A stretch of DNA of 63,536 bases from Desulfuromonas sp. (GCA_028685815.1 JAQUDG010000001.1:1-63536), one strand, 5' to 3'. Shown: positions 1 to 22,166, counted from the first letter of the stretch. The notes: a model not told the origin generated them from the sequence alone. Numbers and translations: made by a program.

Positions 1-883
1 GGAATGCACCAGTTGCCATGCTCCCCATGCCAGCGCTTTCAAAGGGTTGCTCAAGGATCAACAGAAAGAGGTGTGCGCCGCGTGTCATACCAGCTTGAGC
101 GCCACGCAGGGAAAACAGCACGCCCCCTTTAAAAAAGGGCAGTGTGCCAGTTGCCATGCCGTCCACGGAAGCGAGCATCAGGGCTTGTTGCGGAGCGAGG
201 ATTCTAAATTGTGCCTCGGCTGCCATAAAACCAATTCTGCTTGGCAACAACGTCACAATGGGCGCAAGGCGCAGGGGATGAACTGTCTCGAATGTCACCA
301 CCCCCATGCCAGCACCAAAAAAGCCCTGCTGCGCCCCCTGCAACACAAGCCCTTTGCCGCTGGCAACTGCTCTGCATGTCACACCGGCTCTAGCGCAGAT
401 GGACGCTGCCTCTCCTGTCACTCTCAAGTGTTGCCCCAGTTTCAGCGGGTGCATACCCATCTGCAAGGCAAAGGGGCTTCAAACTGTACCGCATGCCACA
501 GTCCTCATGTCAGCAGCCAGGTTGGGCTCTTGAAAGGGATTGCCGGCAGCGTGTGCCGCGATTGTCATGCCGATAAACTCGAACGGCGCAAGCAGGCGCT
601 TTACGTCCATCCGCAGGCCAACCACTGTAGCGACTGCCACGCCGGGCATGGCTCCGATGAGCCCTATATGTTGCGTGGCGGCATGGCTGGGGCCTGCGAA
701 TCCTGCCACGGTGAGCACAGCACCTTTACCCATCCCATCGGCGACGATGTCCTCGATCCGCGCACCGGCACCCCGATGGATTGCATCTCGTGCCACGCGC
801 CGTGCACCGGTACCATGTTTGAACATAATCTGCGCGGTGGACGCGAGCGCGGCCTGTGCCTGCCGTGCCATCCAGGATATTAA
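1..883 (+). CDS. Multihaem c-type cytochrome (5' end outside window; at least 13 CXXCH)
   Basis: Frame 2 is open from nt 2 (ECTSCHAPHAS...) to TAA 881-883, so the tracked start at 47 is internal. 13 CXXCH in ~294 aa, mostly in a repeated CxxCH-x-[PV]H-[AG]S pattern typical of Geobacter-type polyhaem proteins. Confidence 0.9.
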   Translation, partial: ECTSCHAPHASAFKGLLKDQQKEVCAACHTSLSATQGKQHAPFKKGQCASCHAVHGSEHQGLLRSEDSKLCLGCHKTNSAWQQRHNGRKAQGMNCLECHHPHASTKKALLRPLQHKPFAAGNCSACHTGSSADGRCLSCHSQVLPQFQRVHTHLQGKGASNCTACHSPHVSSQVGLLKGIAGSVCRDCHADKLERRKQALYVHPQANHCSDCHAGHGSDEPYMLRGGMAGACESCHGEHSTFTHPIGDDVLDPRTGTPMDCISCHAPCTGTMFEHNLRGGRERGLCLPCHPGY

Positions 884-893
884 AGGTAAGACT

Positions 894-1775
894 ATGCGAT
901 ATACACAGGTCATAATCACCCTGCTAATTTACTGTTGCACCTTTCCGCTGTCGGCCTCCGCTGCCGTGTGGATTAGTCAGTGGCGCGCCCCTGATCCGCA
1001 ATCCGGCGTGCGTCTTGAATCCGTCCTGGCGATGGTTTTTGATCCACAGCGCGAGCGCATCTATGTAGCAGACGGACTGGCAGGAAAACTGCATGCCTTC
1101 GATCTCGACGGGCAGCACCTCTCCGACTTCGACGCCGGTGGCGACCTTGGCACCCCAGTCTCCATCACCCTACAGCGCACCGGACGCTTCTGGTTCGTAG
1201 ACCGCAAGGCCAATGCGTTGGTGCGGCTAGTCCCCGAAGAGCAGCGCCTAGAACGTTTTCCTTTTTCCCTCACGGGGGCAGAAGCCATGCTGCCAGAGAA
1301 GGTGGTGTGGCATCCGGAAGCGGGTTTGATGGTACTCGACCGCCTCAGCGGTAATGTCCTCGCGCTCGATGACAACCTCAACGTGCGCGGACGCTATGGG
1401 AGCAATTGCATTGATGTTGTGAGCGCAGCGGGAAAACTCTGGATATTACAGGCTGACGCCAGTGTTGTGCAGGTCGATCCCAGCGACGCAAGCGAAAGCA
1501 AAGGGAAGCGCATCGCATTACAGTACGATCTTAAACGACCGTCCGCGCTGGAGCGCAGCCCGCAGGGGCAATTGTTCATAGCCGATCGCGGGTTGTGTCA
1601 GGTGCTGGTTTTTTCCCCTGCAGGGCGCCACTTGTACAGCATCGGGGCACGCGGTAACCGGCTCGGGCGTTTCAGTGCCCCGCGTCAGATCCTGTTTCTC
1701 GATTCCGCTCAAGGCAGCGGTGCTCTGGCGGTCCTCGACGAGGTTAATCGCTGCGTGGATCTGTTCAGGCGCTAA
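894..1775 (+). CDS. NHL-repeat beta-propeller protein with signal peptide
   Basis: ATG 894 lies 11 nt after the cytochrome stop. The 540-893 part of the tracked ORF overlaps the cytochrome frame and is discounted. N-terminus MRYTQVIITLLIYCCTFPLSASA is signal-like. Repeated blade-like motifs (YVADGLAGKLHAFD, FIADRGLCQVLVF, GRFSAPRQILF). Confidence 0.75.
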   Translation: MRYTQVIITLLIYCCTFPLSASAAVWISQWRAPDPQSGVRLESVLAMVFDPQRERIYVADGLAGKLHAFDLDGQHLSDFDAGGDLGTPVSITLQRTGRFWFVDRKANALVRLVPEEQRLERFPFSLTGAEAMLPEKVVWHPEAGLMVLDRLSGNVLALDDNLNVRGRYGSNCIDVVSAAGKLWILQADASVVQVDPSDASESKGKRIALQYDLKRPSALERSPQGQLFIADRGLCQVLVFSPAGRHLYSIGARGNRLGRFSAPRQILFLDSAQGSGALAVLDEVNRCVDLFRR

Positions 1776-1820
1776 TAGTGCTTGGGCAATATGAAATTTA
1801 AGGAGCTTAAGGGAGTGCTT

Positions 1821-2966
1821 ATGCCTGCTTCTGGCACACACATAAACGGAGACCAGCGTGTCGACGCGGCGCTACGGGTGAGCGCAGGCTTTGTGGTTAG
1901 CGTGCTCGCCCTCCTTGTGTTTCTGCTCTGTTGGGTTGCCCCGGTGCATGCACGCGTCACTGGTCCATGCTCCAACTGTCACACCATGCACTATAGTCAG
2001 AACAATAGTATCCTCTCTGAGTGGGATGAAGGGGGACCGCACCAGGCGTTACTGCGCACCGATTGTGGTGGATGCCATACCGGCACCAATGAGTTTGGCG
2101 GCAAGACCCCTTTTGTAATGTCTGATGCCCCCGAATATGGCGAAAGTGGTATCGAGGCTAATGCCACTACCCTGGCGGGAGGGAGTTTCTACTGGGTAAA
2201 CCAGCCCGCTAACAAAGCTGTTGGCGGAGAAGCAACAGGGCACAATGTCGCCGGTTTGACCACAGCTGACAGTATCCTTCATACGCCCCCCGGCTTTGAC
2301 GGTGGACGTGCTGCTGCTGATGGCAGTAGACCGGGCGGAGGAACATGGCCGAGCGGGCAGCAAGTTACCTGCGCGGGTGTCTATGGTTGTCACGGCACCC
2401 ATAGCGAAGCGGCGCAGACCAGTGCCATCCACGGGGCGCATCATGGCGATCTCGGTGGGGCGCGTATTAATCCTGGTAATGCTCCCGCAGCGGGATATCG
2501 TTTCCTAGTAGGGATAGAGGGCTATGAAGACCCAAACTGGGAGATCCGCCCGACCGCGGATGCGCATAATCAGTATAAAGGGTTGAATAATCCTGGGGGC
2601 AGCAACACCAGCACCATCAGTAGCTTATGTGCGCGCTGCCACGGTGCGTATCACAGTGGTACGGGAAATACGGGAACCTCCTCGCCGTGGTTGCGGCATC
2701 CGACTGATTACGATATGGGCAACGCTAGCTCAAGCGAGTACCGCAATTATGGTGGCATGGGCAATAGCTACAATCCGGCCGTGCCGCTGGCGAGTGAAAC
2801 TGTGACCAGCGTAAAAAATAAAGTGACATTTAGCAACGATACCATTGTCACCTGCCTATCTTGCCACCGCGCCCACGGCAGTAAATACTACAAGGCTATG
2901 CGCTGGAATTACGCTGGCAGTGTAAATGGTGGACTGTGTACCGAATGTCATAGCAGTAAGAAGTGA
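1821..2966 (+). CDS. OmcS-family hexahaem c-type cytochrome, paralogue A
   Basis: Motif-by-motif match to my recollection of G. sulfurreducens OmcS: CSNCHTMH, GGSFYWV, GHNV, YRFLVG, CARCH...WLRHPTD, CLSCHRAHGS, C-terminal CTECH. ATG 1821 has GGGAG 5 nt upstream; alternative starts are 1791 and 1782. Signal peptide ends VHA. Confidence 0.8.
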   Translation: MPASGTHINGDQRVDAALRVSAGFVVSVLALLVFLLCWVAPVHARVTGPCSNCHTMHYSQNNSILSEWDEGGPHQALLRTDCGGCHTGTNEFGGKTPFVMSDAPEYGESGIEANATTLAGGSFYWVNQPANKAVGGEATGHNVAGLTTADSILHTPPGFDGGRAAADGSRPGGGTWPSGQQVTCAGVYGCHGTHSEAAQTSAIHGAHHGDLGGARINPGNAPAAGYRFLVGIEGYEDPNWEIRPTADAHNQYKGLNNPGGSNTSTISSLCARCHGAYHSGTGNTGTSSPWLRHPTDYDMGNASSSEYRNYGGMGNSYNPAVPLASETVTSVKNKVTFSNDTIVTCLSCHRAHGSKYYKAMRWNYAGSVNGGLCTECHSSKK

Positions 2967-2979
2967 TAAGGATTTATAT

Positions 2980-4347
2980 ATGTTCAAACATACTGTGCGC
3001 GTGTTTATCGGTCATACAATCTGCCTCGGCGTGGCTGCGTTCCTTTCAGGCATCACTTGTGTTCATGCCCTAGAGGTAAACTATACAAATTCAGCCCATG
3101 GGAATGCAACCTATGGGGTAAATCGTTCAGATATGCCGGATGCCTATGCCGTCGGCAACTGCGCGCATTGCCATGTGCAACATGGCAGTGTAGATGGGAG
3201 CGCTGGAGCAGTGCATGGATTTGCCCTTTTCAGTGCCAATTTAGTAGAAGGTGCGGACATTACATATAAGTCGACGGACAGTGTGTGTTTTCAGTGCCAT
3301 ACTACGTCGAATTCTCGGCAGCAGGGGGGATCGGTGCCTAATCCAGATTATGCCGAAACCTTTGGTGGTTTTTCTGAGAATTCAGATCAAGGAGTTTTAG
3401 AGCAGTACAACCCAGACACACAATTAGAAGATTCCTACCATAATCTGGACGAGGTTCGAATCTATGCAGCACAAAACTTTGCTTGGTTTAAAGAGTATAC
3501 TACCCCATGCGAGGCATGTCACAATCCGCATATAGCACGGCGCAATAAAGCCCATGTTAAGGATCCAACGTATACTGCAATATCTCTACCTTCCGACCAC
3601 GGAAATTTGTGGGGCGATGACGCCGGCGAGACCATGGCAAGGTATGGCGGCGATTATCAGGCACCGTTTTACTACAATTCCACTACCAGCTATGAACCTG
3701 GCGGCCTTCTAAATTCAGATCCAAGTAAAGTTCCCGACTACGTCACCTTTTGTAATGAATGCCACGGTTCAGAAAAAGCGCCAATTTACAGCACTAGGCG
3801 AGAGCGCAATTTGGTTATGGTTAACTGGAGCGCCGCTGGTGACAAGCACGGAGCAAGGGGGCGTGATGGGAAAACTTGGTTGCGCGAGCCCTACGCAACA
3901 ATTGGGGGTAAAAGTAACTATGTGCTCAGCTGCGTCGATTGTCATGAGCCCCACGCTTCGCCCTATCCATTCCTGATGCGACGTTCCATCAATGGGCAGC
4001 CGCTAAACCTTAATGAGCCCGGCTTGGGTCCAGATAAGCGGGGGTTTCAGTGTCTGCAATGTCATCAGGATGACAACGCGATGGGTTATGGAGGTGTAAA
4101 TGACTGGGCTCGTCAACACCATGGCCTAGGAGGTGACAGCCCATATTCCGGACGGAATAATATAGGTCCGTCGGGGAAACCACTGGCCAACTGCGATTGT
4201 CATGGCGCGTTTGAAGGTGATATCGGTAGTGGGAAAAATCCCATTCGCTGCGAGATATGTCACTATCACGGCTCGTCTGTGCCTAACCCTGCTGGAGAAT
4301 GGCCTGCAACGGTGACGCCTAAGAATGGTGAGCAGAAGACTTTTTAA
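2980..4347 (+). CDS. Multihaem c-type cytochrome (7 CXXCH plus one CXCH), secreted
   Basis: ATG 2980 lies 14 nt after the previous stop and is followed by a hydrophobic signal (FIGHTICLGVAAFLSGITCVHA). Motifs CAHCH, CFQCH, CEACH, CNECH, CVDCH, CLQCH, CEICH and NCDCH. Confidence 0.8.
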   Translation: MFKHTVRVFIGHTICLGVAAFLSGITCVHALEVNYTNSAHGNATYGVNRSDMPDAYAVGNCAHCHVQHGSVDGSAGAVHGFALFSANLVEGADITYKSTDSVCFQCHTTSNSRQQGGSVPNPDYAETFGGFSENSDQGVLEQYNPDTQLEDSYHNLDEVRIYAAQNFAWFKEYTTPCEACHNPHIARRNKAHVKDPTYTAISLPSDHGNLWGDDAGETMARYGGDYQAPFYYNSTTSYEPGGLLNSDPSKVPDYVTFCNECHGSEKAPIYSTRRERNLVMVNWSAAGDKHGARGRDGKTWLREPYATIGGKSNYVLSCVDCHEPHASPYPFLMRRSINGQPLNLNEPGLGPDKRGFQCLQCHQDDNAMGYGGVNDWARQHHGLGGDSPYSGRNNIGPSGKPLANCDCHGAFEGDIGSGKNPIRCEICHYHGSSVPNPAGEWPATVTPKNGEQKTF

Positions 4348-4353
4348 AGAGGA

Positions 4354-5853
4354 ATGATATCTATGCGCCTAATCTATCTCGGTGCTCTGCTCCTTACGTT
4401 GGGTTGCCTCGGCTGCAATCAGGCCGGGCTTATCCGCCACAGCGATATCTCCTTCTTCAGTACCGATACGGCCTTGGAGCAGGCAGGGATATATCTGTAT
4501 TTAAATGGCGCGGAAAGACAGATTGCCCCCCTTGCAGCCGCTATCCGCACGTTGGAAGTGTATGACGCCACGGCGGAGGTGTGGTTGCCGTTGGAACGCT
4601 CCCCCGCCGGAGAGAATCACCCTGACGGGCAGCGCTATTTAGCCGGCAGCTTGCTGGCGCCGGGGCTGTATCCACACCTACGCATCACCATGGCCGAAGG
4701 CGACACAACCACACCCCAGAATGTGCCCACGGGATTGGCGCGCCTCGAAGCGGGAGAGCGCGTGTGTTTGCAGTTGTGGCTCAATGCGTCATCTGCGGGC
4801 GCACGTACGCAGGAAGGTACGCCAACGTCAAACTTGAACGGTTCGTGGCACGTGAATGTAGCGCAACCACCCTACACTGGTGATCTGCTTGCGGTTTTGG
4901 GTGGAGGGGGAACCGAAGTGCTGCTCCTGCGCAGCGACAACCTCCACACTCGGGCTGCCATTGGGCTGCAGGAACAGTGGAACGATTGGCATCTGCTCGA
5001 AGGTGAGGGAATCTGGGGACTGGCCCCTACCTCCATGACCCTGCGCGAACGGGGAAGTTGGCGCGTGCTGGATCGCCTCGGCTTGCCGTTGGTTGAGCAC
5101 GCCACCGAATTCGCTCCCGCCATGGCGGCGACAGCGGCCTCTGGCGCCGATCCCACCTTTTTTATTACCGACAGCGGCGGCAACCGCCTAGTAAGCATCG
5201 GGCGCCGCAATGGGGCGCAGAATATATATGCTGCGGGTTTTTCTCCCACCCAAATTCTGCTACAGCGCTATGCTTCTGGCAGCGGAACCTTCAGCAATGG
5301 AGGAGACGGTGAGCTCATAGTGGTGAGCGCCGCTGATGGCGTGTATCTATTCGACCCGCAGAGTGGCGCCAATCGCCGCCATAGCAGCGCGTATCGCGTC
5401 GCGGATATGGCTGGTTCGTTTGAATACGATATCGACAGCGCCAGCAACCGCGTAATTTTGGCGCTGGAACGGATAAATGAGGTGCATAGCTATGCGCTGC
5501 CGGAGTTCAGCCTGCAGGCACAGTATCTATGTGCGGCACCGCCACAGCAAGTACTGGTGGTGCGTAACCAGGTGCTGGTCGCAACTGGAAGCGGCACGCG
5601 CAACACTCTGATCTGGCTTAACCTGCGGGATATGACCCGAATGGGGCAACTCCCCCTGCCTTTCCCTGTGGCAGACATGCTTTATAGCCCAGTTACCTCC
5701 AGTGTTTATGCCCTTTCGCGCGACGGGGTACACCTTTTGCAGATTGATTCAATATCTAGGCGCATTGACCGCCACATAACCTTGCCCACTCCGGGCCGAC
5801 GCCTACTTCTGCTTGAACAGCGTCGTGCCGAATCTGGTGTTTTTCACCCTTGA
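4354..5853 (+). CDS. Probable lipoprotein with beta-propeller-like repeats
   Basis: N-terminus MISMRLIYLGALLLTLGCLGCNQ (signal plus LGC lipobox-like Cys). No haem motifs. Repeated strand-rich segments (e.g. VLVATGSG...LIWLNL, VYALSRDGVHLLQID) resemble YVTN/NHL-type blades. The fold call is by eye only. Confidence 0.55.
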   Translation: MISMRLIYLGALLLTLGCLGCNQAGLIRHSDISFFSTDTALEQAGIYLYLNGAERQIAPLAAAIRTLEVYDATAEVWLPLERSPAGENHPDGQRYLAGSLLAPGLYPHLRITMAEGDTTTPQNVPTGLARLEAGERVCLQLWLNASSAGARTQEGTPTSNLNGSWHVNVAQPPYTGDLLAVLGGGGTEVLLLRSDNLHTRAAIGLQEQWNDWHLLEGEGIWGLAPTSMTLRERGSWRVLDRLGLPLVEHATEFAPAMAATAASGADPTFFITDSGGNRLVSIGRRNGAQNIYAAGFSPTQILLQRYASGSGTFSNGGDGELIVVSAADGVYLFDPQSGANRRHSSAYRVADMAGSFEYDIDSASNRVILALERINEVHSYALPEFSLQAQYLCAAPPQQVLVVRNQVLVATGSGTRNTLIWLNLRDMTRMGQLPLPFPVADMLYSPVTSSVYALSRDGVHLLQIDSISRRIDRHITLPTPGRRLLLLEQRRAESGVFHP

Positions 5854-5878
5854 ACCATTTTACTGAGGAATGACATGC

Positions 5879-7096
5879 ATGCAACGTATGGTAGCAATTT
5901 TGATTGTCATCATATTTATAATGAGTGTAATCTTCTGGGTTAACACGCGCACGGCCAGTGGGTCTGATGCTGGCTGTCTGGCTTGTCACGCAGAAGAGGT
6001 AGAGATGGCTCAATCTCGACTGTTTGTGCATGCGCCGTATCGTGATGGGGCCTGTGGTGCCTGTCATGTGCAGGAGCGTGATTCGACCAAGAATGAGACC
6101 GCATCAGGTACGCCAGCGGCGCCACTGTCAGCATTTGAGCCCTCACAGATACGCGCGCTGGATGTGCACTGGGTGCAGGAATGCTACGAGCCCTCTCGCC
6201 ATCTGGTTCTTCCAGTCAGCGATGTTGAAGGCCACAGCATGCTGGTGGTAGAGATTTGGGATCAGTGCCGCGAAGAGCACCAGTATGTCATGCCCATCCT
6301 CCCCCTTGAGCAACTAACGACCATCCCACCCCAAGGGATAGCCCCTTTGCCCTTGCCAAAGGTAACGCTGCGGCGCGATCCCATCTATCCTGATGCTCTG
6401 ATGGTAGATTGCAACGCTAGCATCCCGGTGCGGGGAAAAATATACCTGCAGCGCGCCGGCGCTCCGGTACGCGTGGTGGAGACTGGCTCTATTTATCAGA
6501 CTGAAATAAGGGTGAGTATTTCAAGTCTGGAGCGTAATGCCAGTTACAGTTTGTATCTGGAGACTGTGGACACCAGCGACCGGCAGCAGCGTTCCCCAGT
6601 GTATGAATTTGTCCCAGCGCAGCTAGCTATTTCTGCGGAAGTCGCGCGCAGCGAAGGCTGCACCCTCGAGACCGAAATGGCCCTGTATCGTGGCAGCTGC
6701 GCAGGTGGACCATGCTACCTCCTTGCCGTTGAAGCGAGTCAGTCCATCACTCTTTCAATCGGAACGCTCAAAAGCGGCGCGTCGGCTCCGGCGCACCAGC
6801 GTGGGGGTAAATCGACTGTCTCTAGGCGGCCGGACTACCATCCCGATATTGCAGATCCGCGCTTCACCAATCACTCCGCCTGTCGCACCTGTCATCCCGA
6901 TTCATTCGGCCCTATGTCGCATCCGGTGGATATAGTCCCCCCCGAAGGGATGAACGTCTCTGAGGAACTGCATTTGCTCCCTGATGGACGCATAAGCTGC
7001 ATGACCTGCCACGAATTTCATGCCGGGGAAGACCACTATCGCCTCCGCTTTAAGTCCAGACAGAAGCTGTGCAATGCCTGTCACGCACACTATTAA
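5879..7096 (+). CDS. Membrane-anchored pentahaem c-type cytochrome with a long haem-free central domain
   Basis: GAGGA lies 9 nt upstream of ATG 5879 (alternative ATG 5870). N-terminal TM helix (VAILIVIIFIMSVIFWV). CLACH and CGACH near the N-terminus, CRTCH, CMTCH and CNACH near the C-terminus, with ~270 aa between them lacking Cys-X2-Cys-His. Confidence 0.8.
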   Translation: MQRMVAILIVIIFIMSVIFWVNTRTASGSDAGCLACHAEEVEMAQSRLFVHAPYRDGACGACHVQERDSTKNETASGTPAAPLSAFEPSQIRALDVHWVQECYEPSRHLVLPVSDVEGHSMLVVEIWDQCREEHQYVMPILPLEQLTTIPPQGIAPLPLPKVTLRRDPIYPDALMVDCNASIPVRGKIYLQRAGAPVRVVETGSIYQTEIRVSISSLERNASYSLYLETVDTSDRQQRSPVYEFVPAQLAISAEVARSEGCTLETEMALYRGSCAGGPCYLLAVEASQSITLSIGTLKSGASAPAHQRGGKSTVSRRPDYHPDIADPRFTNHSACRTCHPDSFGPMSHPVDIVPPEGMNVSEELHLLPDGRISCMTCHEFHAGEDHYRLRFKSRQKLCNACHAHY

Positions 7097-7127
7097 AGTT
7101 AAACAACAACCATCGGCGGAGAAAAAA

Positions 7128-7706
7128 ATGTTTTCCACAGACGACAAAAATGAAACGCATCCTGCGTATCGGCGCAAATCACTGAATCTTGGAGTTAAGA
7201 CGGAATTCCAGCGCTGGCTCATGTGGCGCATCTTCGGGGTGGTGCTGCTTAGCGCACTAGTGGCGGCTTTGGTGCTGTACTTCTATGCGCGGCACGAAAC
7301 CATCACCACCTTTTACGATGCCCACATCAAGCTGCGCCGCGTCAGTGATCTGCTCCTACCCGTGGTTCTGTCAGGGGTCGGGGTGAGCTTGCTCGGGGGG
7401 TTGTTGCTGGCGTTGTTTTTACCCCAGAAGATTGCGGGCCCCCTCTATAATATCGAGCGCACCCTCGAGCGTGTTCGGAGCGGAAGCCTGAAACCGCGGG
7501 TTAAGTTACGCCAGCATGACTGCCTCGAAGAGATGGCGAACGAGGTAAACCTCACCCTCGATTTTATGCATGAGCGCATTGTCGCCGCCGCAGAATTGCT
7601 TGATGAGATCCATGCGGCCCTGGATATTTCGGATGACGCACGCGTTCGCGAGATGTTGCAGCGTCAGCAGGAGCTGCTGCGCAGCTTACTTGATCCCCCG
7701 CTGTGA
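7128..7706 (+). CDS. Small membrane protein with HAMP-like domain and no output domain
   Basis: ATG 7128; the upstream part of the tracked ORF overlaps the cytochrome gene. Two TM segments flank a short loop, then PQKIAGPLYNIERTLERVRSGSL...LEEMANEVNLTLDF, a HAMP-type amphipathic pair. The protein ends ~60 aa later. Confidence 0.6.
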   Translation: MFSTDDKNETHPAYRRKSLNLGVKTEFQRWLMWRIFGVVLLSALVAALVLYFYARHETITTFYDAHIKLRRVSDLLLPVVLSGVGVSLLGGLLLALFLPQKIAGPLYNIERTLERVRSGSLKPRVKLRQHDCLEEMANEVNLTLDFMHERIVAAAELLDEIHAALDISDDARVREMLQRQQELLRSLLDPPL

Positions 7707-7842
7707 GTTTTGCCCCATACTGATGTGCCAATTGGGGCACCTGCCCCAGACTCAAAGGGTAGGACGTGATATCCCTACCAGCAGCCCCACCCGAAATGGA
7801 TGGTTGGACGGGTAAGTTGTTGTAATTAAAGAAATTTTGGTT

Positions 7843-7856
7843 TTTGTTTAAACAAA
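7843..7856. promoter_or_regulatory. Perfect 14-bp palindrome TTTGTTTAAACAAA
   Basis: Read directly from the sequence. Lies 20 bp upstream of the sigma-54-like -24 element. Could be a regulator or IHF-type site; no function is shown. Confidence 0.3.
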
Positions 7857-7875
7857 CATCGTGGATGCGCACGTT

Positions 7876-7891
7876 TGGCACAGGTTTGGCA
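7876..7891 (+). promoter_or_regulatory. Sigma-54 (RpoN) type -24/-12 promoter
   Basis: TGGCACaggttTgGCA versus consensus TGGCAC-N5-TTGCW. GG and GC are at the correct 10-nt offset with one mismatch in the -12 box. Lies ~320 nt upstream of ATG 8210. Confidence 0.5.
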
Positions 7892-8209
7892 AGGTATATC
7901 CAAGAGACACAAACTTTTAAGTTGATAAGCCTAAAAGATGTAAATGGAAACGTTGCGTCGGTAATTGCGGAAACTGCCACAACCACGGTAAAAAGTTAGG
8001 AACCAAGCCCCGCGAGGGATTGGCGAGTGCATCTGAAGTCGAACGTTCATTCGTTCGCGCCCGTGTGAGAACACCAAAAAAGACCGCGACCCGCGCAAAG
8101 AATCTAGGTTGCCACCCAATTTGCGTAGCCACATATATTCACCTGCTCGCTGCCGTGCTGCGTGGAAGTGAATACAAAAACCAACACAAGAAGAGGAAGG
8201 AGAATTACC

Positions 8210-9352
8210 ATGAATATCAAATTTTTATTATCCCTACTACTGACTCTGGCGCTTGTCGTCAGCGGCTCTACCGCTTGGGCCAAGGTGCAAGGAGCGTGTT
8301 CTGACTGTCACACCATGCATAATTCACAAGATGGTAGCGATGTTGTGGCAGAGCTAGGCCGTTCATTGACCAAAGGTGATTGCGTGGGTTGTCATACCGG
8401 CGCTAACGCAGCAGGTGGGAATATCCCGTATATTACCGACACCTCGGAACCTACCTACACTTCGGCAGATGGTACCTCAGGCACCACGTTGGCCGGTGGA
8501 AGTTTCTACTGGGTGGCGAACGGTGGAGATGCAAAAGGGCATAACGTCCTTAATATAGCTGCTGGGAAAGATGCCAATATGCCCAACCTGGATCCGCCAG
8601 GATGGAATCCGGCAGTCAGCAACAATGTTATTGCTGGTGGCGATGCAACTTGGAGCAATCAGCTTACCTGCGCGGGAACATATGGTTGTCATGGACCGCA
8701 TGGCGCCGCTGATGACTTTCAGGATATCGCTGGCGCGCACCACGGGGATGATTCCGTTATCGATGGTAGTACAGCGGCAAAAAGTTATCGCTTCTTAAAT
8801 GGCATCATCGGGTATGAAGCTGCGGATTGGGAGTTAAGTCCTAGCGCGACCAATCGCAATGAGTATCATGGGGTAGCAAGAAAAAGCATAACCACGGGCG
8901 GTGGTGAGTCAGATCAGAAAACCATTAGTTACTTCTGTGCTACTTGCCATGGAAACTACCACTCAGGGGATGGCATCTCCAGCGCGGCGCAAGAAGCCAG
9001 CATCGGCGAGAACCCCTGGTTACGTCACCCCACAGATTATGATATGGCGGATACCGCAGTTGGCTCTGAATACCGCTCATACAATCAAGACGGAACCTAC
9101 AGTGTAGAGGCACCGGTTGCCTTTGACCTTGGAGCTAGTGTGACTAAAGCTTCGCATGCGCTTAACTCGGTCGCATTCACTGGTGGCAAGGCTATTGTAA
9201 CCTGTATCTCATGTCACCGTGCACATGGCTCGCCTCATGATGACCTGCTGCGCTGGGCCTACAGCCCAACCAATGACACTGGCGCAGTTATGTCAGCAGG
9301 TAGTGGAGCCGGTAACGTTGGATGTTTTGTGTGCCATACGACCAAAAATTAA
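8210..9352 (+). CDS. OmcS-family hexahaem c-type cytochrome, paralogue B
   Basis: GGAAGGAG RBS before ATG 8210. Signal peptide MNIKFLLSLLLTLALVVSGSTAWA. Same motif series as paralogue A: CSDCHTMHNS, CVGCH, GGSFYWV, KGHNV, TCAGTYGCHG, YRFLNG, CATCH...WLRHPTD, CISCHRAHGS, CFVCH. Confidence 0.85.
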   Translation: MNIKFLLSLLLTLALVVSGSTAWAKVQGACSDCHTMHNSQDGSDVVAELGRSLTKGDCVGCHTGANAAGGNIPYITDTSEPTYTSADGTSGTTLAGGSFYWVANGGDAKGHNVLNIAAGKDANMPNLDPPGWNPAVSNNVIAGGDATWSNQLTCAGTYGCHGPHGAADDFQDIAGAHHGDDSVIDGSTAAKSYRFLNGIIGYEAADWELSPSATNRNEYHGVARKSITTGGGESDQKTISYFCATCHGNYHSGDGISSAAQEASIGENPWLRHPTDYDMADTAVGSEYRSYNQDGTYSVEAPVAFDLGASVTKASHALNSVAFTGGKAIVTCISCHRAHGSPHDDLLRWAYSPTNDTGAVMSAGSGAGNVGCFVCHTTKN

Positions 9353-9425: not shown

Positions 9426-9457
9426 GGGCGTCAGTTTCGGCTGACGCCCTTTTTTTA
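9426..9457 (+). terminator. Rho-independent terminator
   Basis: GGGCGTCAG-tttcgg-CTGACGCCC followed by TTTTTTT, 74 nt after the stop of the cytochrome gene. Confidence 0.85.
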
Positions 9458-9509: not shown

Positions 9510-10619
9510 ATGAGTCAAAAAACTTGGAACTATCGCGGTCATCTTCTTTTAGGGATAGCAGCGCTGTTCTTTATGCTGATGGCGGTCTATGTTCTTGAAC
9601 GCCGTATTGCCGGGGTGTCTGAGGTTTGGCGCTGCGTCAGTGGGTATGGTCTTGGGCTAGGTCTGGGGCTAAACAGTCTGGCCTTGGTTTTTTTGCTGAA
9701 TCGTAAGCAAGGAGCCAAGGGGGGTGCTGCCCTCCCTGTGCCCAACTTTTCCTATGAAGAAGTGTTTCACAAAGGAGAGATTCTGATCCATGTGGTTGAT
9801 CTGGAAGGGCGGATTCTGTATGTAAATCAGGCGTGGAAGGATCTGCTGGGTTATGCTGATACCGACTTGATGCATAAGAATATTTTCAGTGTGATTGATG
9901 CTGAATTTCAGGATATCTGCCGCAAGCGCATGCAGGCGCTGGTGCAAAATAAGGAAGATAAGGATCTGTTTCAGATCACTGTACGCGCCAAGAGCGGGGC
10001 AAAGGTGACGCTGGAAGGGAACTGCTCCCTTGGCTATGTAAATGGAGTCCCCCAGAGTGTGCGCGGCCTGTTTCGCGATATCAGTGATCGTAAGGCGCGG
10101 GAGCAGCATCTGCTCCGCTTGGCGTATTATGATGGCCTCACCGGCTTGCCCAACCGCCATCTCCTGCCGGACCGTTTGCGCCAAGCCATGGCATGCGCTG
10201 CGCGTTATGGGCAGTACTGCGCCGTGGTGTTTCTTGATCTCGACGGGTTCAAGCAGGTCAATGACACCCTTGGACACGCACAGGGCGATTTTCTTCTGCG
10301 TCAGGTAGGTCAGCGTCTGTCTCAGGCGTTGCGTGAAAATGACACCGTAAGTCGAATCGGCGGGGATGAGTTTGTCGTAGTGATAACCGGCCTGCGCGAG
10401 CTCACACATATCACCGGGATTGTGCATAAACTGCAGCGCCGTATCGAGGAACCCTTTGCGCTAGAAGAGATGGAGTTTATTATGCAAGCTAGTTTTGGTG
10501 TCGCGGTGTACCCCGATGATGGCACTACGGTGGATGAACTGCTTGCGTGCGCGGATCAAGCCATGTACGCAGCTAAAGAGAACGATAAGGGCGGCTATCG
10601 TATGTACGCAGCCCGTTAA
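9510..10619 (+). CDS. Membrane-associated PAS-GGDEF diguanylate cyclase
   Basis: N-terminal TM segments and a PAS-like region (HVVDLEGRILYVNQAWKDLLGY). GGDEF domain with RIGGDEFVV active site, RxxD I-site (RENDtvsriGGDEF) and the canonical FKQVND...GHAQGD guanine-binding residues. Confidence 0.9.
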   Translation: MSQKTWNYRGHLLLGIAALFFMLMAVYVLERRIAGVSEVWRCVSGYGLGLGLGLNSLALVFLLNRKQGAKGGAALPVPNFSYEEVFHKGEILIHVVDLEGRILYVNQAWKDLLGYADTDLMHKNIFSVIDAEFQDICRKRMQALVQNKEDKDLFQITVRAKSGAKVTLEGNCSLGYVNGVPQSVRGLFRDISDRKAREQHLLRLAYYDGLTGLPNRHLLPDRLRQAMACAARYGQYCAVVFLDLDGFKQVNDTLGHAQGDFLLRQVGQRLSQALRENDTVSRIGGDEFVVVITGLRELTHITGIVHKLQRRIEEPFALEEMEFIMQASFGVAVYPDDGTTVDELLACADQAMYAAKENDKGGYRMYAAR

Positions 10620-10858
10620 GGATCGCCCGCGCCCTTTAAACCACCGCCACGGTCTGTCCCTATGCTTTGCTCCGTACAACTGTAACCCCGGTGCAGCCAA
10701 AGCTTGCGCACGCGTGCTAAGGGAGGGTATATGGTACATAGCGGGTACAAGTGGTTGTTCTGTATACGCCTATCCACGTGCTGAAGGTTTTGGGCAAAAG
10801 CTAAACCTCTCTGAAACGGCAGGCCATTCTTTCAGGGGTTCGGAGGTGTTTTTACGGT

Positions 10859-13087
10859 ATGAAGCTCAGTATCCAGGTCAAAATGATTTTGACCATTATT
10901 GTTGGGGTGTTGGTGTGGGGCTGGTTCCACTATTATATCCAGCAGCGCGAGATTCTGCCGAGCTATCATCGCCAGGAAGAACTTCTTATTCAAGCACAGA
11001 CCCTGCATGTGCGTGAGCTTTTAAGTTATGAGCTTGAAGCCCTCGACCAGTTTTGTTACGACTGGGCCGCCTGGGACGATTCCTACGCCTTTATCCGCAA
11101 TCACAACCTTGAGTACATAGAATCCAATCTAGTTTACACCTCTTTTGAGCACAATAATCTGAGCCTTATCTACTATGTCGATACCTCCGGACGTAAGGTC
11201 TGGCACAATTTCTATGATTTAAATCGCAGTGAAGCATACGCAGATGATACCTTCTGGTCGCGGCCACAATTGGGCCCAGACGAGCCATTTCTGCAGATTG
11301 AGGGGGTGGAAGATTCGCTCTCAGGGCTGGTTGGGCTTAAACAAGGGGTTTTGCTCATAGCAGTACGCCCCATAATACCCAGCTCGGGGGTAGGTGTGAT
11401 ACGCGGGTACCTGATCATGGGGCGTATGCTTGAGGGTGAGGTTACCAAGCGGATTAATCACCATTTGCGCAGCAGGGTTGATTTTATTCCCTGGAGCGAA
11501 GTTAAGGCAACCCTCGGAGCGGATGACCTGAAACTGTTGCGCCAAGATAAAGTATTAAATCGCCCTGATCCCGAAGCTAAAAATATTATGCAAGGCTACG
11601 TAGCCTTGTTTGATCTGTGGGGGAAGCCGGTTGCGGTAGCACGGATGCATATGGAGCGCACGTTGATGCAGCAGGGGGAAAGGGCTCTGCTACGCAACGT
11701 GCAGGGTAATCTTATTGCGGGCAGTATTGTTTTGTTCTTGATGCTGCTGATGCTGCATAGATTTGTGGTGCTGCCGCTACGTCACCTTACTTCTAGTGTG
11801 CAGCAAGTTGGCGCCGATAATGCCAAATGGACGGAATTGCCCCGAAACCTCAAAGGGGAAGATGAGATCGGCATGCTGGCGCACGAATTTGAGCGTATGT
11901 TGAGCCGGATCAAAACCCAGATCGAATTCAAAGACGAAATAGCGCTCAAACTGGAGCGCAGTAAAGCCAGGACTCGCCTAGTTCTGGATACCACGCCGGA
12001 TGCTATTTTAAGCGTCGGCGCTGACGGAACCATAACTGCGAGCAACAGAGGTGCAGATCTCATGCTCGGTTATGCGGACGGCTCTCTGGCGGGAGAAAAA
12101 ATTTACAATGTTCTGGCCTCACCGTTCAGCGAACGCTTGCGCGAACGCCTGCGTACAGATGCTAATTCATGTCGCTGCTTCACTGCTGGTTGCGAAGCGC
12201 GCGCACGGCGGCGTGATGGCAGTGAGTTATACGTACATGTGCGTGGTTGTCCTATGGAGGACAATCCTGAGTCCATGTTTTTATGGACCATGCGAGACAT
12301 CTCGGAGCTGAAAGAGATGCATGAACAAGTGTCCCACCACGAACGTCTTGCAGCTATCGGGCAGATGGGGGCATCGGTGGCGCATGATGTGCGCAACCCT
12401 CTGACGGGGATCAGTGGTGGAATTCAATTACTCCTCAAGCAGGGAGGGCTAACCTCGGTACAACACACGGTGCTGGAGGAGATGCTGATACTTGCGGATC
12501 GTATCGAGTATACCGTGGCCCAGATGCTGGCGTTTTCGAAGCGCTGGGAGCCCTCCACCCAGAAAATCAATCTAGTTGATTTCCTGCAGCAGATCGGCGA
12601 AGAGCTCTCCGGACGCAAGGAGTTCGCCAACGTAACCTTTGCTTTTGGCGGCGAGCGGCGCTTGTATGTAAAGGCCGACCCCGAGTTAATGCGTCAGGTG
12701 TTCAACAACTTGTACCAGAATGCGAAGGAGTCTATGGATAATGGCGGTTCCATAGGTTCCGTAGTAACCCGCGCCGAGGGTGTAGCCAAGGTGCTTATAA
12801 AAGATAGCGGAACAGGGATGGATCAGGACGTCGTCGGTAGAGTGCTTGAACCTTTTTACAGCACTAAGCGAGAGGGAACCGGTCTTGGTTTGGCCATCTG
12901 TCGCAAGATTGTGGAGGCGCACGACGGCACCATGCAACTTGAAAGTATGCCTGGTGTAGGAACTACGGTGACCATTACCCTTCCCTTGGGTAACCAGGAA
13001 CTGCTGGGACAGCACAATGGGTTAAGGGGGCAGAAAAATGTTGCGCTCAATATTTTAGCCGAGGGTGAGGTCGACCAGCTCCAGTAG
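10859..13087 (+). CDS. Sensor histidine kinase: CHASE4 - HAMP - PAS - HisKA - HATPase_c
   Basis: CHASE4-type signature CYDWAAWDDSYAF after an N-terminal TM helix. H-box AHDVRNPLTGI, N-box NLYQNAKES, G-boxes DSGTGM and GTGLGLAI. No receiver domain, and no cognate response regulator in the window. Confidence 0.85.
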   Translation: MKLSIQVKMILTIIVGVLVWGWFHYYIQQREILPSYHRQEELLIQAQTLHVRELLSYELEALDQFCYDWAAWDDSYAFIRNHNLEYIESNLVYTSFEHNNLSLIYYVDTSGRKVWHNFYDLNRSEAYADDTFWSRPQLGPDEPFLQIEGVEDSLSGLVGLKQGVLLIAVRPIIPSSGVGVIRGYLIMGRMLEGEVTKRINHHLRSRVDFIPWSEVKATLGADDLKLLRQDKVLNRPDPEAKNIMQGYVALFDLWGKPVAVARMHMERTLMQQGERALLRNVQGNLIAGSIVLFLMLLMLHRFVVLPLRHLTSSVQQVGADNAKWTELPRNLKGEDEIGMLAHEFERMLSRIKTQIEFKDEIALKLERSKARTRLVLDTTPDAILSVGADGTITASNRGADLMLGYADGSLAGEKIYNVLASPFSERLRERLRTDANSCRCFTAGCEARARRRDGSELYVHVRGCPMEDNPESMFLWTMRDISELKEMHEQVSHHERLAAIGQMGASVAHDVRNPLTGISGGIQLLLKQGGLTSVQHTVLEEMLILADRIEYTVAQMLAFSKRWEPSTQKINLVDFLQQIGEELSGRKEFANVTFAFGGERRLYVKADPELMRQVFNNLYQNAKESMDNGGSIGSVVTRAEGVAKVLIKDSGTGMDQDVVGRVLEPFYSTKREGTGLGLAICRKIVEAHDGTMQLESMPGVGTTVTITLPLGNQELLGQHNGLRGQKNVALNILAEGEVDQLQ

Positions 13088-13112
13088 ATATCTTTGGTTG
13101 TGTGGAAAAATA

Positions 13113-13158
13113 AAACTGCCTGAAGCGCTCGGTGTGAGTGAAGTGCTTCAGGCAGTTT
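13113..13158. terminator. Bidirectional terminator hairpin between convergent genes
   Basis: AAACTGCCTGAAGC...GCTTCAGGCAGTTT, a 14-bp stem with A/T runs on both flanks, between the kinase stop (13087) and the tkt stop (13191). Confidence 0.75.
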
Positions 13159-13190
13159 AAATTAACCCCTTGTTAGCTTTGTTGTAGGGC

Positions 13191-15185
13191 TCAGTTTTTA
13201 GCCAAGAGTTGGCGCGCCTGCTTGACCACATTGGCGCTGGTAAAACCAAAATGTTGCATCAGTTCGTCACCGGGGGCGCTGGCGCCGAACCCTTCCATGC
13301 CAATTATAGCTCCATCTAGGCCGACATAACGCTCCCAGCCAAAAGTCAATCCGGCCTCGATAGCAAGGCGCTTGCGGCAAGCTCGCGGGAGGACCTTCTC
13401 CTTGTAAGCGGCATCCTGGGCTTCAAACAGCTCCCACGAGGGGATAGAGACCACTCGGGTGCCGATGCCATCTTTCTCCAGCTCTTGTCTAGCCTCCATG
13501 GCATGCTGCACTTCTGAACCGCTGGCGATGAGGATGAGACTCAAGGGATGCTGTTCTGCGGCAAGAATGTAGGCACCTTTATGCAATAGCTCGGCGCTGT
13601 TAGCTTCGGTACGCTCTAGGGTGGGCAAGCCCTGGCGGGTGAGGATCAGTGCGGTGGGGCCAGTGCGCTTTAGTAGGGCGGCCTTCCAAGCTTGAGCGGT
13701 CTCATTTGCGTCACACGGACGGATCACCGTGAGGTTAGGTACGCTGCGCAGACTACTGAGTTGTTCAATAGGCTGATGCGTAGGACCATCCTCACCTACC
13801 CCAATGGAGTCGTGGGTAAAGATGTATATCGGGGCAATCCCCATCAGGGCGGCCATCCGCATGGGGGGGCGCATATAGTCGGAGAAAATCATGAAGGTGG
13901 CACCGAACGGTAACAGCCCCTTGGTGTGGCACAGGCCGTTGAGGATAGACCCCATGGCGTGCTCACGGATGCCGAAGTGGATGTTGCGCCCGGCGTGGCA
14001 TGGACTGAACGCGTCCGCCCCGTTGAGGTGGGAGTTGTTGGACGGCGCTAGGTCCGCTGAGCCGCCAAGCATCAGCGGCAGGCCCGCAGCTAGCGCATTC
14101 AGGGTCGCTCCACTGGCGGAGCGGGTGGCGACACTCTTTCCGGCTTCGAAGCGAGGTATGAGTTTGTCAAGAGCGGCGCTATCGGGCGCGGTAGAGTCGA
14201 TCCAGTCGGCCAGTTTTGGATTGACCTTGGCTTTGGCGGTACATTTTTGCTGCCACTGTTGTTCTAGTTCAACACCCCGTGTTTTCAGTCCGGCCATGTG
14301 GGTGTATACCGCTGCGGGGACAGAGAAATGCTCATCAGGATTGCGCCCCAAGGCTTGCTTGGTCAGCTTCAGCTCTTCGCTTCCCAGCGGCGCGCCGTGA
14401 GCGGCAGCCGTCCCCTGTTTGTTCGGAGATCCCTGCCCGATGTTGGTGCGCGTTATGATCAGGGATGGCCGTGGGTCGCATTTGGCGCGTTCGATGGCAG
14501 CATCTACTTCAAGAAGATTTTCCCCGGTGACCCGTTCTACGTGCCAGCCGTAGGCGAGATAGCGCGTGGCCACCTCTTCGCTGAAGGCCAACGAGGTATC
14601 CCCCTCGATGGAGATTTTATTGTCTAGGTATAGATAAATGAGATTGCCGAGGCGCAGGTGTCCGGCGAGGGATGCGGCTTCAGCTGAAACCCCCTCCATC
14701 ATATCGCCATCCGAGCACAAGGCGTAGATAGTGTAATTGAACAGCTCAGGGTCTACTTTTTCCGCCAGAAACCTAGCCCCCATGGCCATCCCGGTTCCGA
14801 CGGCAATCCCTTGCCCTAGAGGCCCAGTGGTGGTTTCAACTCCAGGGGTGTGCCCGAACTCTGGGTGACCTGGAGTTTTGCTCCCAAACTGACGAAATTG
14901 CTTGATGTCATCGAGACTAAGATCGTACCCACACAGGTGGAGGGTGCTGTACAGCAGCATGGAGCCATGCCCACAGGAGAGAATGAAGCGGTCGCGGCCG
15001 GCCCAGTCCGGATTCGCCGGATTGTAGCGCATATGTCTGGTGTACAGTAGGTACGCCAGCGGCGCGCCTTCCATCGGAGTGCCCGGATGTCCGGAGTTGG
15101 CTTGTTCTACCGCATCGGCGGACAGAAGGCGGATGGTGTCGATGGTCAGTGCTGCCTGGTTGAGGTCAATCTCGGGTGCTTGCAT
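13191..15185 (-). CDS. tkt: Transketolase
   Basis: 664 aa. N-terminal [25 protein letters not shown] and GDGDMMEGV-type ([11 protein letters not shown]) ThDP motifs; full-length similarity to bacterial Tkt. Confidence 0.95.
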
Positions 15186-15221
15186 GTAAACAGGGCTCCT
15201 TGGCTGCTGCAGCCGGTTTTG

Positions 15222-16994: not shown

Positions 16995-17151
16995 ATGCAG
17001 GTCGGCGCTGTGCTCTGTTCCATTGGGGTAGACACGCTGAAACAGGAGTGCTGCTGGCCACGCGGTCTGGTGGCTAGGCAGGAGTTTTTTAGATTCGCAC
17101 ACTGCTTTTGATATGCAGCGTGTGTTCCCATTCAGGGAGGCAAATGTAGGT

Positions 17152-17544
17152 ATGGTCGAACATCATCTAGTCGATTACATGTATGTCTTGGTGTTTCTGA
17201 CGGTCGGGGTGGTAAGTGCCCTTGGAATGTTACTGATCGCCCGTCTGATCGCGCCAAGGGGAGGGTTCGGAAAGACGCGGGACACGTATGAGTGCGGAAT
17301 GGACACCTACGATTCAGCGTGGAATGTGCGTTTTGATATTTCATACTATCTGTATGCGCTGATCTTTCTGGCGTTTGACGTTGACGTTCTGTATTTGTTT
17401 CCCGTAGCGACAGCTTTTGACAGGGTGTCGGCAGCGCGGGGCATTACTGAGCTGTTCATATTTGTTGGTATTTTGTCTCTGGCGATTGTGTACGCCTGGG
17501 TCAAGGGAGTCTTTACGTGGCCGAACAGAAAAAAAGTTTGTTAA
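17152..17544 (+). CDS. nuoA: Complex I subunit A
   Basis: 130 aa with three TM segments. YECGMD...[24 protein letters not shown] is the NuoA/ND3 signature. Confidence 0.9.
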
Positions 17545-18113: not shown

Positions 18114-18119
18114 TGCGCT

Positions 18120-18683: not shown

Positions 18684-18704
18684 CCCGGAGCTGAGCTAAT
18701 TGCT

Positions 18705-19826: not shown

Positions 19827-19831
19827 TGAAT

Positions 19832-22084: not shown

Positions 22085-22166
22085 TTTGTCGTATTGAGGA
22101 TTTAGGAAACTGTAACGGCTGTTTCAAAACATCAGTTGAAACACACCACCTGAGAAAGCGCTTGCA

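Follow-up and report, generated by a model that had tools for sequence, protein, structure and literature searches.

Two genes near the start of the DNA analysed here, a stretch of 63,536 nucleotides that we call the window, encode distant homologues of OmcS, the paradigm cytochrome nanowire. Sequence and profile comparisons place the two proteins, A and B, both Sec-exported, in a large and divergent branch of the OmcS family, and show their neighbours to be homologues of the omcS-companion set. On our best reading the source is a Desulfuromonadaceae bacterium and the window holds the distal (downstream) half of an OmcS/osc-type extracellular electron-transfer cluster. We give a probability of about 0.68 to such a filament cluster, with A and B as its subunits. 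This kind of system, and the osc cluster, are already known; what is new is a member of the divergent branch. More than 1,700 members of that branch can be detected in Thermodesulfobacteriota, in hosts that include thermophiles reducing sulfur and sulfate and probably the bacteria that partner methane-oxidising archaea. Identity to OmcS is ~27%, and no structure has been solved in the branch; we know of only one structure for the whole OmcS family.

The cluster and its surroundings comprise:

2..883, + strand: G1, 3' part (293 codons) of a multihaem cytochrome gene that the window edge truncates (13 CXXCH here, 16 in 396-aa full-length relatives; Paired_CXXCH_1)
894..1775, + strand: G2, secreted NHL/SGL-like beta-propeller protein (sub-threshold propeller-model matches, ScyF NHL match)
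1821..2966, + strand: paralogue A, OmcS-like cytochrome, 381 aa (5 CXXCH + CAGVYGCH; long signal peptide ending VHA)
2980..4347, + strand: G4, secreted cytochrome of an unnamed family (7 CXXCH)
4354..5853, + strand: G5, lipoprotein (lipobox LTLGC) with an N-terminal beta-sandwich, then an all-beta, probably propeller region
5870..7096, + strand: G6, cytochrome whose N-terminus bears a hydrophobic anchor or signal (2 + 3 CXXCH around a ~260-aa haem-free middle domain)
7128..7706, + strand: G7, small protein with two TM segments and a HAMP-like stretch, lacking an output domain (start set by relatives; sub-threshold matches)
7707..8209, no strand: intergenic region of 503 nt before B (sequence inspection, Rfam, promoter search)
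8210..9352, + strand: paralogue B, OmcS-like cytochrome, 380 aa (5 CXXCH + CAGTYGCH; canonical signal peptide ending AWA)
9426..9449, + strand: intrinsic terminator closing the cluster (10-bp stem with 7 GC pairs, then T7)
9510..10619, + strand: PAS-GGDEF diguanylate cyclase (Pfam)
10859..13087, + strand: CHASE4-HAMP-PAS histidine kinase (Pfam)

Paralogues A and B in the OmcS family

A and B align over their full length (42-44% identity, E=8e-74). Against OmcS of Geobacter sulfurreducens (GSU2504; 6EF8, 6NEF), with a sequence identical to 6ef8_A, BLASTP gives E=4e-8 and 25% identity for A, in a colinear alignment, and E=3e-15 and 27% identity for B. OmcS was not listed when A and B were searched as single sequences against the PDB with phmmer, so a family profile is needed. 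A profile of 57 family members has OmcS as its sole match in the PDB (E=1.7e-16, positions 28-345), and hhalign of the family against 12 true OmcS homologues reaches 99.8% probability over 312 columns (E=1.7e-27). An earlier reading of the DNA, made from the sequence only, had named placement in a non-filament cytochrome family as grounds for giving up its proposal; the profile led to OmcS.

The same reading had described two secreted proteins of ~380 aa carrying the OmcS motif series, and every motif is indeed found in A, B and OmcS. Common to all three are CS[ND]CHTMH[YN]S, GHNV, YRFL.G, C..CH...H...LRHP, C[LI]SCHRAHGS and a C-terminal CxxCH, while GGSFYWV of A and B has GGDFGWV as its OmcS counterpart. 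By inspection, the Sec signal peptides would be cleaved between APVHA and RVTGPCSNCH in A and between STAWA and KVQGACSDCH in B, with haem 1 near the mature N-terminus in both. They resemble OmcS in being secreted, in length (~380-410 aa) and in the colinear order of six haem sites; their first haem motif lies within ~10 residues of the mature N-terminus and continues into CHTMH, and the non-haem motifs and candidate distal histidines are held in common. They also form a paralogue pair in one cluster, as do omcS and omcT. Unlike OmcS, they have no ~45-residue insertion before the last haem.

The family has more than 1,739 members found, with homologues in Thermodesulfatator, Thermosulfuriphilus, Desulfobulbaceae and Desulfuromonas. 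In two relative loci, L004 and L089, each paralogue has its own counterpart: A is 82% and 70% identical, respectively, to the upstream copy, and B is 59-84% identical to the copies in its own position. An AF2 model of B, haem-free and mostly coil, is mediocre (pLDDT 68, pTM 0.74). A Foldseek search of the PDB with it gave no match at E<=10, which is uninformative and is not evidence against homology. OmcE (7TFS) is likewise a filament cytochrome with an inter-subunit His-haem bond (PMC12954529), but it is tetrahaem, 232 aa long and without significant homology to A or B; its weak C-terminal similarity to A has E=0.053.

Haem sites and ligands

Each paralogue has five CXXCH motifs, colinear with sites 1, 2, 4, 5 and 6 of OmcS. 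At site 3, where OmcS has CSSCH, stands CAGxxGCH (CX5CH), invariant in 57/57 members, and in the alignment all six sites are colinear with those of OmcS. Both proteins had been called hexahaem: five haems are accounted for by CXXCH, and since the third site is CX5CH the sixth is inferred. Judged from the alignment, haem attachment at this site is plausible. Because the site is invariant, motif counting scores these proteins as pentahaem, and one survey does report 'pentaheme' OmcS homologues (PMC11492766). A literature search for a CX5CH or CXXXXXCH site found no papers. The site gives mass spectrometry and structural studies something concrete to aim at.

Counterparts of OmcS H16, H110, H247, H257 and H335 are invariant in the alignment (57/57 members), and that of H147 is present in 51/57. 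CHTMH after haem 1 is invariant in the 57 members, as is the very short mature N-terminus before it. In OmcS the ligand given to the neighbouring subunit's haem 5 is His16. Axial ligation in OmcS is by 12 His, of which one reaches haem 5 from the adjacent subunit (PMC6584659; PMC12954529). The family differs from OmcS in an extra invariant HH (B positions 177/178) and a rebuilt haem-3 region. Every conserved Cys and His, CHTMH included, is kept in both A and B.

Neighbouring genes and their order

The paralogues had been said to bracket a co-directional, almost gap-free gene set. All eight cluster genes do lie on the + strand, but 503 nt separate G7 from B. Much of the proposed inventory stands: a cytochrome with at least 13 haems (G1, 13 CXXCH within the window), a 7-8-haem cytochrome (G4, 7 CXXCH), a lipoprotein (G5, from its lipobox) and a membrane-anchored pentahaem cytochrome (G6, five CXXCH and an N-terminal hydrophobic helix that may be an anchor or a signal). 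The NHL propeller and the HAMP-only protein hold in a weaker form. For G2, directly upstream of A, the matches to SGL, NHL and 6-bladed propeller models are sub-threshold, and the ScyF NHL match has an E-value of 1e-7. The HAMP assignment of G7 comes from sub-threshold matches only (HAMP_2 E=0.19; others, E 8e-4 to 0.05, all to the TM2-HAMP region of WalK, MtrB, BarA and DgcN). Its start is most likely at 7128, as in relatives, and ~195-aa ORFs resembling it occur upstream of omcS in loci L013 and L064 (E~1e-8).

G1 matches Pfam Paired_CXXCH_1 (E=2e-45), and the 396-aa representative of its cluster is 100% identical across the window part. Homologues of G1 were found in 38 loci, often with true omcS some 9-10 kb upstream of them. 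The G4 family counts 389 representative clusters at E<=1e-3, among them a Geoalkalibacter subterraneus protein; no relative of G4 was found in the PDB, and the PDB matches of G6 are insignificant. G4 and G6 were also considered as extra OmcS paralogues and rejected: iterated HMMs drifted onto OmcS, and hhalign covered only 36-92 columns of the doubled-CXXCH module (36-47 for G4 against OmcS or the OmcS-like family).

G5 has no Pfam or NCBIfam match and only 9 homologues among 5.8 billion proteins. It is probably a remote homologue of the ~470-aa, OscD-like lipoprotein that follows omcS/omcT, to judge from an hhalign comparison with an alignment of the latter (92%, E=5e-7), in which most of the confident columns fall within the first ~100 residues. 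Gene order and sizes lead us to take that lipoprotein for OscD itself. AF2 models G5 with a pLDDT of 42, confidently only at residues ~44-145; the model's Foldseek matches to propellers, weak at TM ~0.1, are suggestive of a propeller region.

Two features claimed earlier, that the accessory proteins are a fixed set and that the module is complete, have to be given up. G4, G5, G6 and G7 are confined to a small Desulfuromonadaceae clade (G6 to close relatives), and the four genes between A and B are, on this distribution, lineage-restricted additions. As to completeness, the window starts inside G1, leaving the upstream cluster genes outside, and relatives have eight more cluster genes upstream. 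That region was judged from relatives 63-94% identical. In loci L088, L089, L007, L091 and L092 the genes upstream encode an OMP, an LpoB-like lipoprotein, a ~476-480-aa lipoprotein, a ~206-aa protein, a PpiC-type PPIase, 26-haem and 16-haem cytochromes and an NHL protein. The block of OMP, LpoB-like lipoprotein, ~450-aa lipoprotein and PPIase lies directly upstream of the G1 orthologue in L088 and from the PPIase onward in L089, and recurs in the more distant L007, L091 and L092. The 26-haem gene precedes the G1 orthologue in L001, L004, L088 and L089; its product is 33% identical over the full length (E~1e-105) to a 26-CXXCH ORF of omcS loci.

HMMs built solely from loci of the OmcS-like family were run on 78 omcS loci, only 53 of which reach 9 kb downstream; the genome scan with OmcS did not return G. 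sulfurreducens itself, its best match being 67% identical. Around true omcS the helper genes recur with their order kept, each in 38-56 of the 78: the OMP in 38 (at +3.1 kb), the LpoB-like lipoprotein in 56 (+5.3 kb), the 476-aa protein in 44 (+5.9 kb) and the PPIase in 46 (+7.2 kb). By single-pass HMM, 52 loci have a G2-type NHL gene directly upstream of omcS, at a median distance of 1.2 kb; phmmer alone finds it in 23. The statement that omcS/omcT sit beside NHL-repeat and lipoprotein genes is thereby supported, and the accessory linkage, whose lack had been offered as a ground for rejection, is kept both in the subfamily and around true omcS. The same assembly genes accompany both branches, which supports an ancient, portable nanowire machinery. 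Their synteny can serve as a signature for finding nanowire loci, in which automated annotation gives all these genes the label 'cytochrome c3 family'.

The partners are less obscure than 'essentially uncharacterised' would imply. According to PMC13194489, which relays Shen et al. (2025, Cell Chem Biol 32:239), the osc operon has assigned roles: folding for OscH, secretion for OscE/F/G and nanowire morphology for OscD. As summarised there, osc shares with the present lineage an NHL propeller gene beside the OmcS-like one. A ~470-500-aa lipoprotein follows the latter, and the series continues with OMP, LpoB-like lipoprotein, ~450-aa lipoprotein, PPIase, 26-haem cytochrome and one more multihaem cytochrome; homologues were detected in the same order. 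In osc the machinery block lies downstream; in this lineage it is upstream of the OmcS-like genes, and G4-G7 separate the paralogues.

The 503-nt region presumably holds B's own promoter and leader; it has no sigma-70 consensus site. GEMM/c-di-GMP-type riboswitches stand upstream of Geobacter cytochrome genes. Such an element was considered before B and rejected, the region having no Rfam match by gathering score or at E<=1. The diguanylate cyclase and histidine kinase beyond the terminator may be regulators of the cluster, and the pair also follows B in loci L001, L004, L008 and L089.

Possible functions of the cluster

If the cluster is of the OmcS/osc type, A and B would each receive six c-type haems in the periplasm, the third on the unusual CX5CH site. 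The machinery found upstream in relatives (OMP, LpoB-like lipoprotein, ~480-aa lipoprotein, PpiC-type prolyl isomerase) would fold and export them. The subunits might then polymerise head-to-tail as in OmcS, with the His in CHTMH ligating haem 5 of the next subunit; filament formation is here argued by analogy. The 26-haem and 16-haem (G1) cytochromes would deliver electrons to the filament base, G2 (the NHL propeller) and G5 (the OscD-like lipoprotein) would act on assembly or filament form, and G4, G6 and G7 would be lineage-specific additions. With its own promoter region, B would probably be regulated apart from A, perhaps via the adjacent c-di-GMP and histidine-kinase genes. Counted against this reading are the 25-27% identity to OmcS, the rebuilt haem-3 region, the mediocre model of B and the location of the machinery genes outside the window itself.

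Several other explanations can be offered. That the OmcS resemblance is motif-level convergence among doubled-CXXCH cytochromes, with no common ancestry, is effectively refuted and to us very improbable: the null results of phmmer and Foldseek, and the local matches of G4 and G6 to OmcS through the Paired_CXXCH module, could be quoted for it, but the 312-column match includes the non-haem motifs GG.F.WV, GHN, YR.L.G and LRHP, those of G4 and G6 are far shorter, and the osc-type synteny is independent support for homology. A different question is whether both paralogues polymerise. Possibly only one builds the filament, probably B, which is more conserved and has its own promoter region and terminator; A would then form with G4-G7 a separate lineage-specific unit, e.g. 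a cap, a base or an anchor, or else another wire suited to a different redox window. The modest A-B identity, the orthology of each to the same-position copy in two relatives, the higher score of B against OmcS, the gap before B and the narrow range of G4-G7 all fit such a division, but both paralogues keep CHTMH and the other conserved Cys and His, and we regard it as somewhat doubtful. A further conjecture, the most novel one and in our view unlikely, is that the OmcS-like subfamily builds nanowires with the third haem on a previously unremarked CX5CH site in a ligand environment rebuilt by the extra HH, and that in this clade A/B and G4-G7 (7-haem cytochrome, OscD-like lipoprotein, anchored 5-haem cytochrome, HAMP-only protein) make a second, separately regulated wire or anchoring module.

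A and B might also form no filament. As monomeric or loosely associated outer-surface hexahaem cytochromes, they could dock on a porin-cytochrome conduit and act there as terminal reductases or oxidases; the OMP, the lipoproteins and the 26- and 16-haem cytochromes would then pass electrons through the outer membrane and would secrete no filament. This is how Murali et al. (2023, PMC10553843) interpret the homologous genes for the OMP and cytochromes, as the conduit OetABI rather than as secretion machinery; of OmcS and its three hexahaem paralogues in G. sulfurreducens, OmcS alone was identified as a filament subunit (PMC12954529); and the two large cytochromes are plausible trans-periplasmic wires. 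Yet the His of the putative inter-subunit ligand and the short mature N-terminus are invariant in the 57 members, a PpiC-type isomerase and LpoB/CsgG-like lipoproteins are better suited to assembly and secretion than to electron transfer, and OscE-H are reported to be genetically assigned to secretion and folding, as relayed in PMC13194489. We consider the conduit quite unlikely, and prefer the filament cluster.

The OmcS-like subfamily of the oetABI cassette is, by description, likely to be the family studied here. That cassette, from ANME-partner sulfate reducers, Desulfobulbia and Thermodesulfobacteria (PMC10553843), agrees with our cluster in taxonomic range and cassette logic, and filament formation was proposed for it, but it is read there as an electron conduit for uptake from ANME archaea. 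In Desulfovibrio ferrophilus, the predicted extracellular multihaem cytochromes DFE_0450 and DFE_0464 (Deng et al. 2018, PMC5815863; PMC9769857) adjoin, by description, NHL-repeat genes and larger multihaem cytochromes, and homologues are reported in Thermodesulfobacteria. If these cytochromes belong to the same family, it would count against the filament reading that mutants without DFE_0448-0450 or DFE_0464-0465 still reduced Fe(III) oxide.

The OmcS-like paralogues and their haem sites

The sequence-only reading saw an OmcS-type locus here, named for the nanowire cytochrome of Geobacter sulfurreducens, and this locus is real and was correctly recognised. It is a divergent OmcS-type system and no new kind of system. 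All eight of its genes lie co-directionally on the + strand (positions 1-9352).

Genes and terminator of the cluster
2-883, +, G1: 3' part of a multihaem cytochrome, 13 CXXCH (motif count)
894-1775, +, G2: secreted protein, sub-threshold NHL/SGL propeller matches
1821-2966, +, A: first OmcS-like paralogue
2980-4347, +, G4: 7 CXXCH (motif count)
4354-5853, +, G5: lipoprotein without family match
5870-7096, +, G6: hydrophobic N-terminus, 2+3 CXXCH
7128-7706, +, G7: start most likely at 7128
8210-9352, +, B: second OmcS-like paralogue
9426-9449, +, strong terminator 3' of B

A and B are 42% identical to each other (E=8e-74). In BLASTP against OmcS (reference sequence identical to PDB 6ef8_A) both align colinearly and nearly full-length at 25-27% identity (A, E=4e-8; B, E=3e-15); OmcS was absent from the PDB matches of either paralogue by single-sequence phmmer. 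When a profile of 57 family members is searched against PDB, OmcS is the sole significant entry (E=1.7e-16, profile positions 28-345), and comparing the family profile with one of 12 true OmcS homologues yields a probability of 99.8% over 312 columns (E=1.7e-27). The match includes the non-haem motifs that had first drawn attention to the locus (GG.F.WV, GHN, YR.L.G and LRHP). These matches establish that A and B are homologous to OmcS. Foldseek with an AF2 model of B, a weak one (pLDDT 68), returned zero matches. Over 1,739 homologues were found for B. The nearest (81-83% identical) are from Desulfuromonas or Desulfuromonadaceae metagenome-assembled genomes; those at about 50% identity belong to Thermodesulfatator, Thermosulfuriphilus, Desulfobulbaceae and other Thermodesulfobacteriota.

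In OmcS there are six CXXCH motifs and twelve histidine axial ligands, and haem 5 takes one of these ligands from the adjacent subunit (PMC6584659; PMC12954529). A and B, in contrast, have five CXXCH each, and at the third site, counted along OmcS, a C-A-G-x-x-G-C-H of CX5CH spacing, found in 57/57 family members. 'Pentaheme' OmcS homologues were reported in a survey of Desulfuromonadia cytochromes (PMC11492766), and this is the count that motif counting would yield for the A/B family. Our literature search for a CX5CH-type motif found no paper mentioning one. Histidines aligned to OmcS H16, H110, H247, H257 and H335 are invariant among the 57 members, as is an extra HH pair, and 51 of them have the H147 equivalent. 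H16 is reportedly the inter-subunit ligand (Wang et al. 2019). The second tandem OmcS-like paralogues of Thermosulfuriphilus (L007 11204-12331; 7 CXXCH) and Thermodesulfatator (L092 11135-12238; 6 CXXCH and a CX4CH) are without CX5CH and have canonical CXXCH or CX4CH motifs there. The site is evidently plastic, and the haem-3 region varies within the OmcS-like family.

Companion genes

At first sight the cluster looked like a complete module, which does not hold: the window begins within G1 and contains only part of the locus. The representative of the fragment's 90%-identity cluster is 396 aa long and 100% identical across the window part, and full-length G1 relatives have 16 CXXCH. A longer contig, of 126,685 bp, has identical G1 and G5. 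In relatives (L088, L089) G1 is preceded by genes for an outer-membrane-like protein (~680 aa), an LpoB/CsgG-like lipoprotein (~190 aa), a ~476-aa protein, a ~206-aa protein, a prolyl isomerase of PpiC type (~535 aa) and a cytochrome of 641 aa with 26 CXXCH. The same block adjoins OmcS-like genes of the subfamily in Thermosulfuriphilus ammonigenes (L007), Thermodesulfatator atlanticus (L092) and a metagenome contig (L091); L090 has an orphan OmcS-like copy without the cluster.

Single-pass HMMs built solely from window-type loci were searched against the surroundings of true omcS homologues (50-67% identical to OmcS) at 78 loci, 53 of which reach 9 kb downstream of omcS. The components matched downstream of omcS keep the same order.

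Companion matches in 78 omcS loci (loci matched; median distance from omcS start)
NHL propeller: 52/78; -1.2 kb
Outer-membrane protein: 38/78; +3.1 kb
LpoB-like lipoprotein: 56/78; +5.3 kb
~476-aa protein: 44/78; +5.9 kb
PPIase: 46/78; +7.2 kb

By tblastn the 26-haem cytochrome matched 40 omcS loci (best 31-34% identity, full length, E~1e-105), where G1 homologues come after it. Absence of conserved linkage, which would have spoken against the OmcS-type assignment, is therefore not what we see: accessory-gene linkage to OmcS homologues is conserved, and the companion genes are shown by sequence matching to be homologous to, and collinear with, those of omcS loci. When genome contigs were scanned with the exact OmcS sequence, none of the loci matched was from G. 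sulfurreducens (best match 67% identical); metagenome-assembled genomes with true OmcS homologues came from Nitrospirota, Anaeromyxobacter, Rokubacteria, Acidobacteriota and Bacteroidota.

Nor are such partners essentially uncharacterised, as had been supposed. According to PMC13194489, citing Shen et al. 2025, the omcS companion (osc) operon is published, with proposed roles in folding (OscH), secretion (OscE/F/G) and morphology (OscD), and omcT, oscC and omcJ are listed as OmcS-like paralogues. In the same taxa Murali et al. 2023 (PMC10553843) described 'OmcS-like' genes in an oetABI cassette, proposing filaments and taking the outer-membrane protein and cytochromes as an electron conduit. 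Extracellular cytochromes of D. ferrophilus, described as adjoining NHL genes (Deng et al. 2018, PMC5815863; PMC9769857), may belong to the A/B family.

Among all fetched loci, homologues of G4, G5, G6 and G7 occur in close relatives only. G5 has just nine homologues among 5.8 billion proteins; an hhalign comparison using these with the ~470-aa lipoprotein encoded after omcS/omcT gives 92% (E=5e-7), the match being strongest over the ~100 N-terminal residues. The start of the canonical cluster is thus mirrored here by NHL, OmcS-like, cytochrome and lipoprotein genes in that order. G4, from an unnamed cytochrome family (389 representative clusters), has only a doubled-CXXCH module in common with OmcS. 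Matches of G7 are all sub-threshold, yet all fall on the TM2-HAMP region of sensor kinases. In two Geobacteraceae genomes (L013 4374-5621, L064 3300-4571), a two-component system and omcS are preceded by pairs of G7-like TM-HAMP ORFs (~195 aa; tblastn E~1e-8). In ERZ21831004 contig_16 (L008/L088, locus 12104-16007) the A, G4 and G5 orthologues are each in two or three ORFs, either through assembly frameshifts or because the genes are decaying.

Possible function and other features of the window

Our overall reading, to which we give a probability of about 0.68, is an OmcS/osc-type extracellular electron-transfer cluster working as follows. Each A or B subunit would carry six haems, be exported and folded by the upstream-encoded machinery, and polymerise head-to-tail via the conserved CHTMH histidine. 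The 26-haem and 16-haem cytochromes would deliver electrons, and G2 and G5 may act in assembly or shape. That A and B actually form filaments we consider slightly favoured. B may be regulated separately, possibly via the two genes 3' of it (9510-13087, +), which encode a PAS-GGDEF diguanylate cyclase and a histidine kinase of CHASE4-HAMP-PAS type. Both genes stand 3' of B in each close relative (L001, L004, L008, L089), which suggests that c-di-GMP or a two-component system controls the cluster. The 503-nt gap 5' of B (7707-8209) matched nothing in Rfam, even with the cut-off relaxed to E<=1, and contains no sigma-70 consensus; in its equivalent in relatives a 43-codon ORF is called (L001 9754-9885). 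Further work would best address the CX5CH site and the four-gene insert specific to this lineage.

OmcS nanowires are reportedly charged by periplasmic PpcA-E (PMC10954620), and the window encodes a PpcA-like protein among its other features.

Other features
62513-62839, -, 108-aa c7-type trihaem cytochrome, PpcA-like (3 CXXCH; PF14522, E=5.5e-14)
49606-50889, +, 427-aa cytochrome c554-like protein (8 CXXCH; Multi-haem_cyto, E=4e-27), unlinked to the cluster
~17100-28740, +, long co-directional membrane-protein ORF run of lower GC (0.48) and strongly negative AT skew; an NADH dehydrogenase (nuo) operon, judged by synteny with L004 and L008 (Oxidored_q4/q6, Complex1_30kDa/49kDa)
45789-48856, -, ArsP-type permease (PF03773) with small membrane/periplasmic ORFs beside it
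44632-45702, sodium/bile-acid family transporter
30596-30679, -, lone tRNA gene with a long variable arm (Rfam, 50.3 bits)
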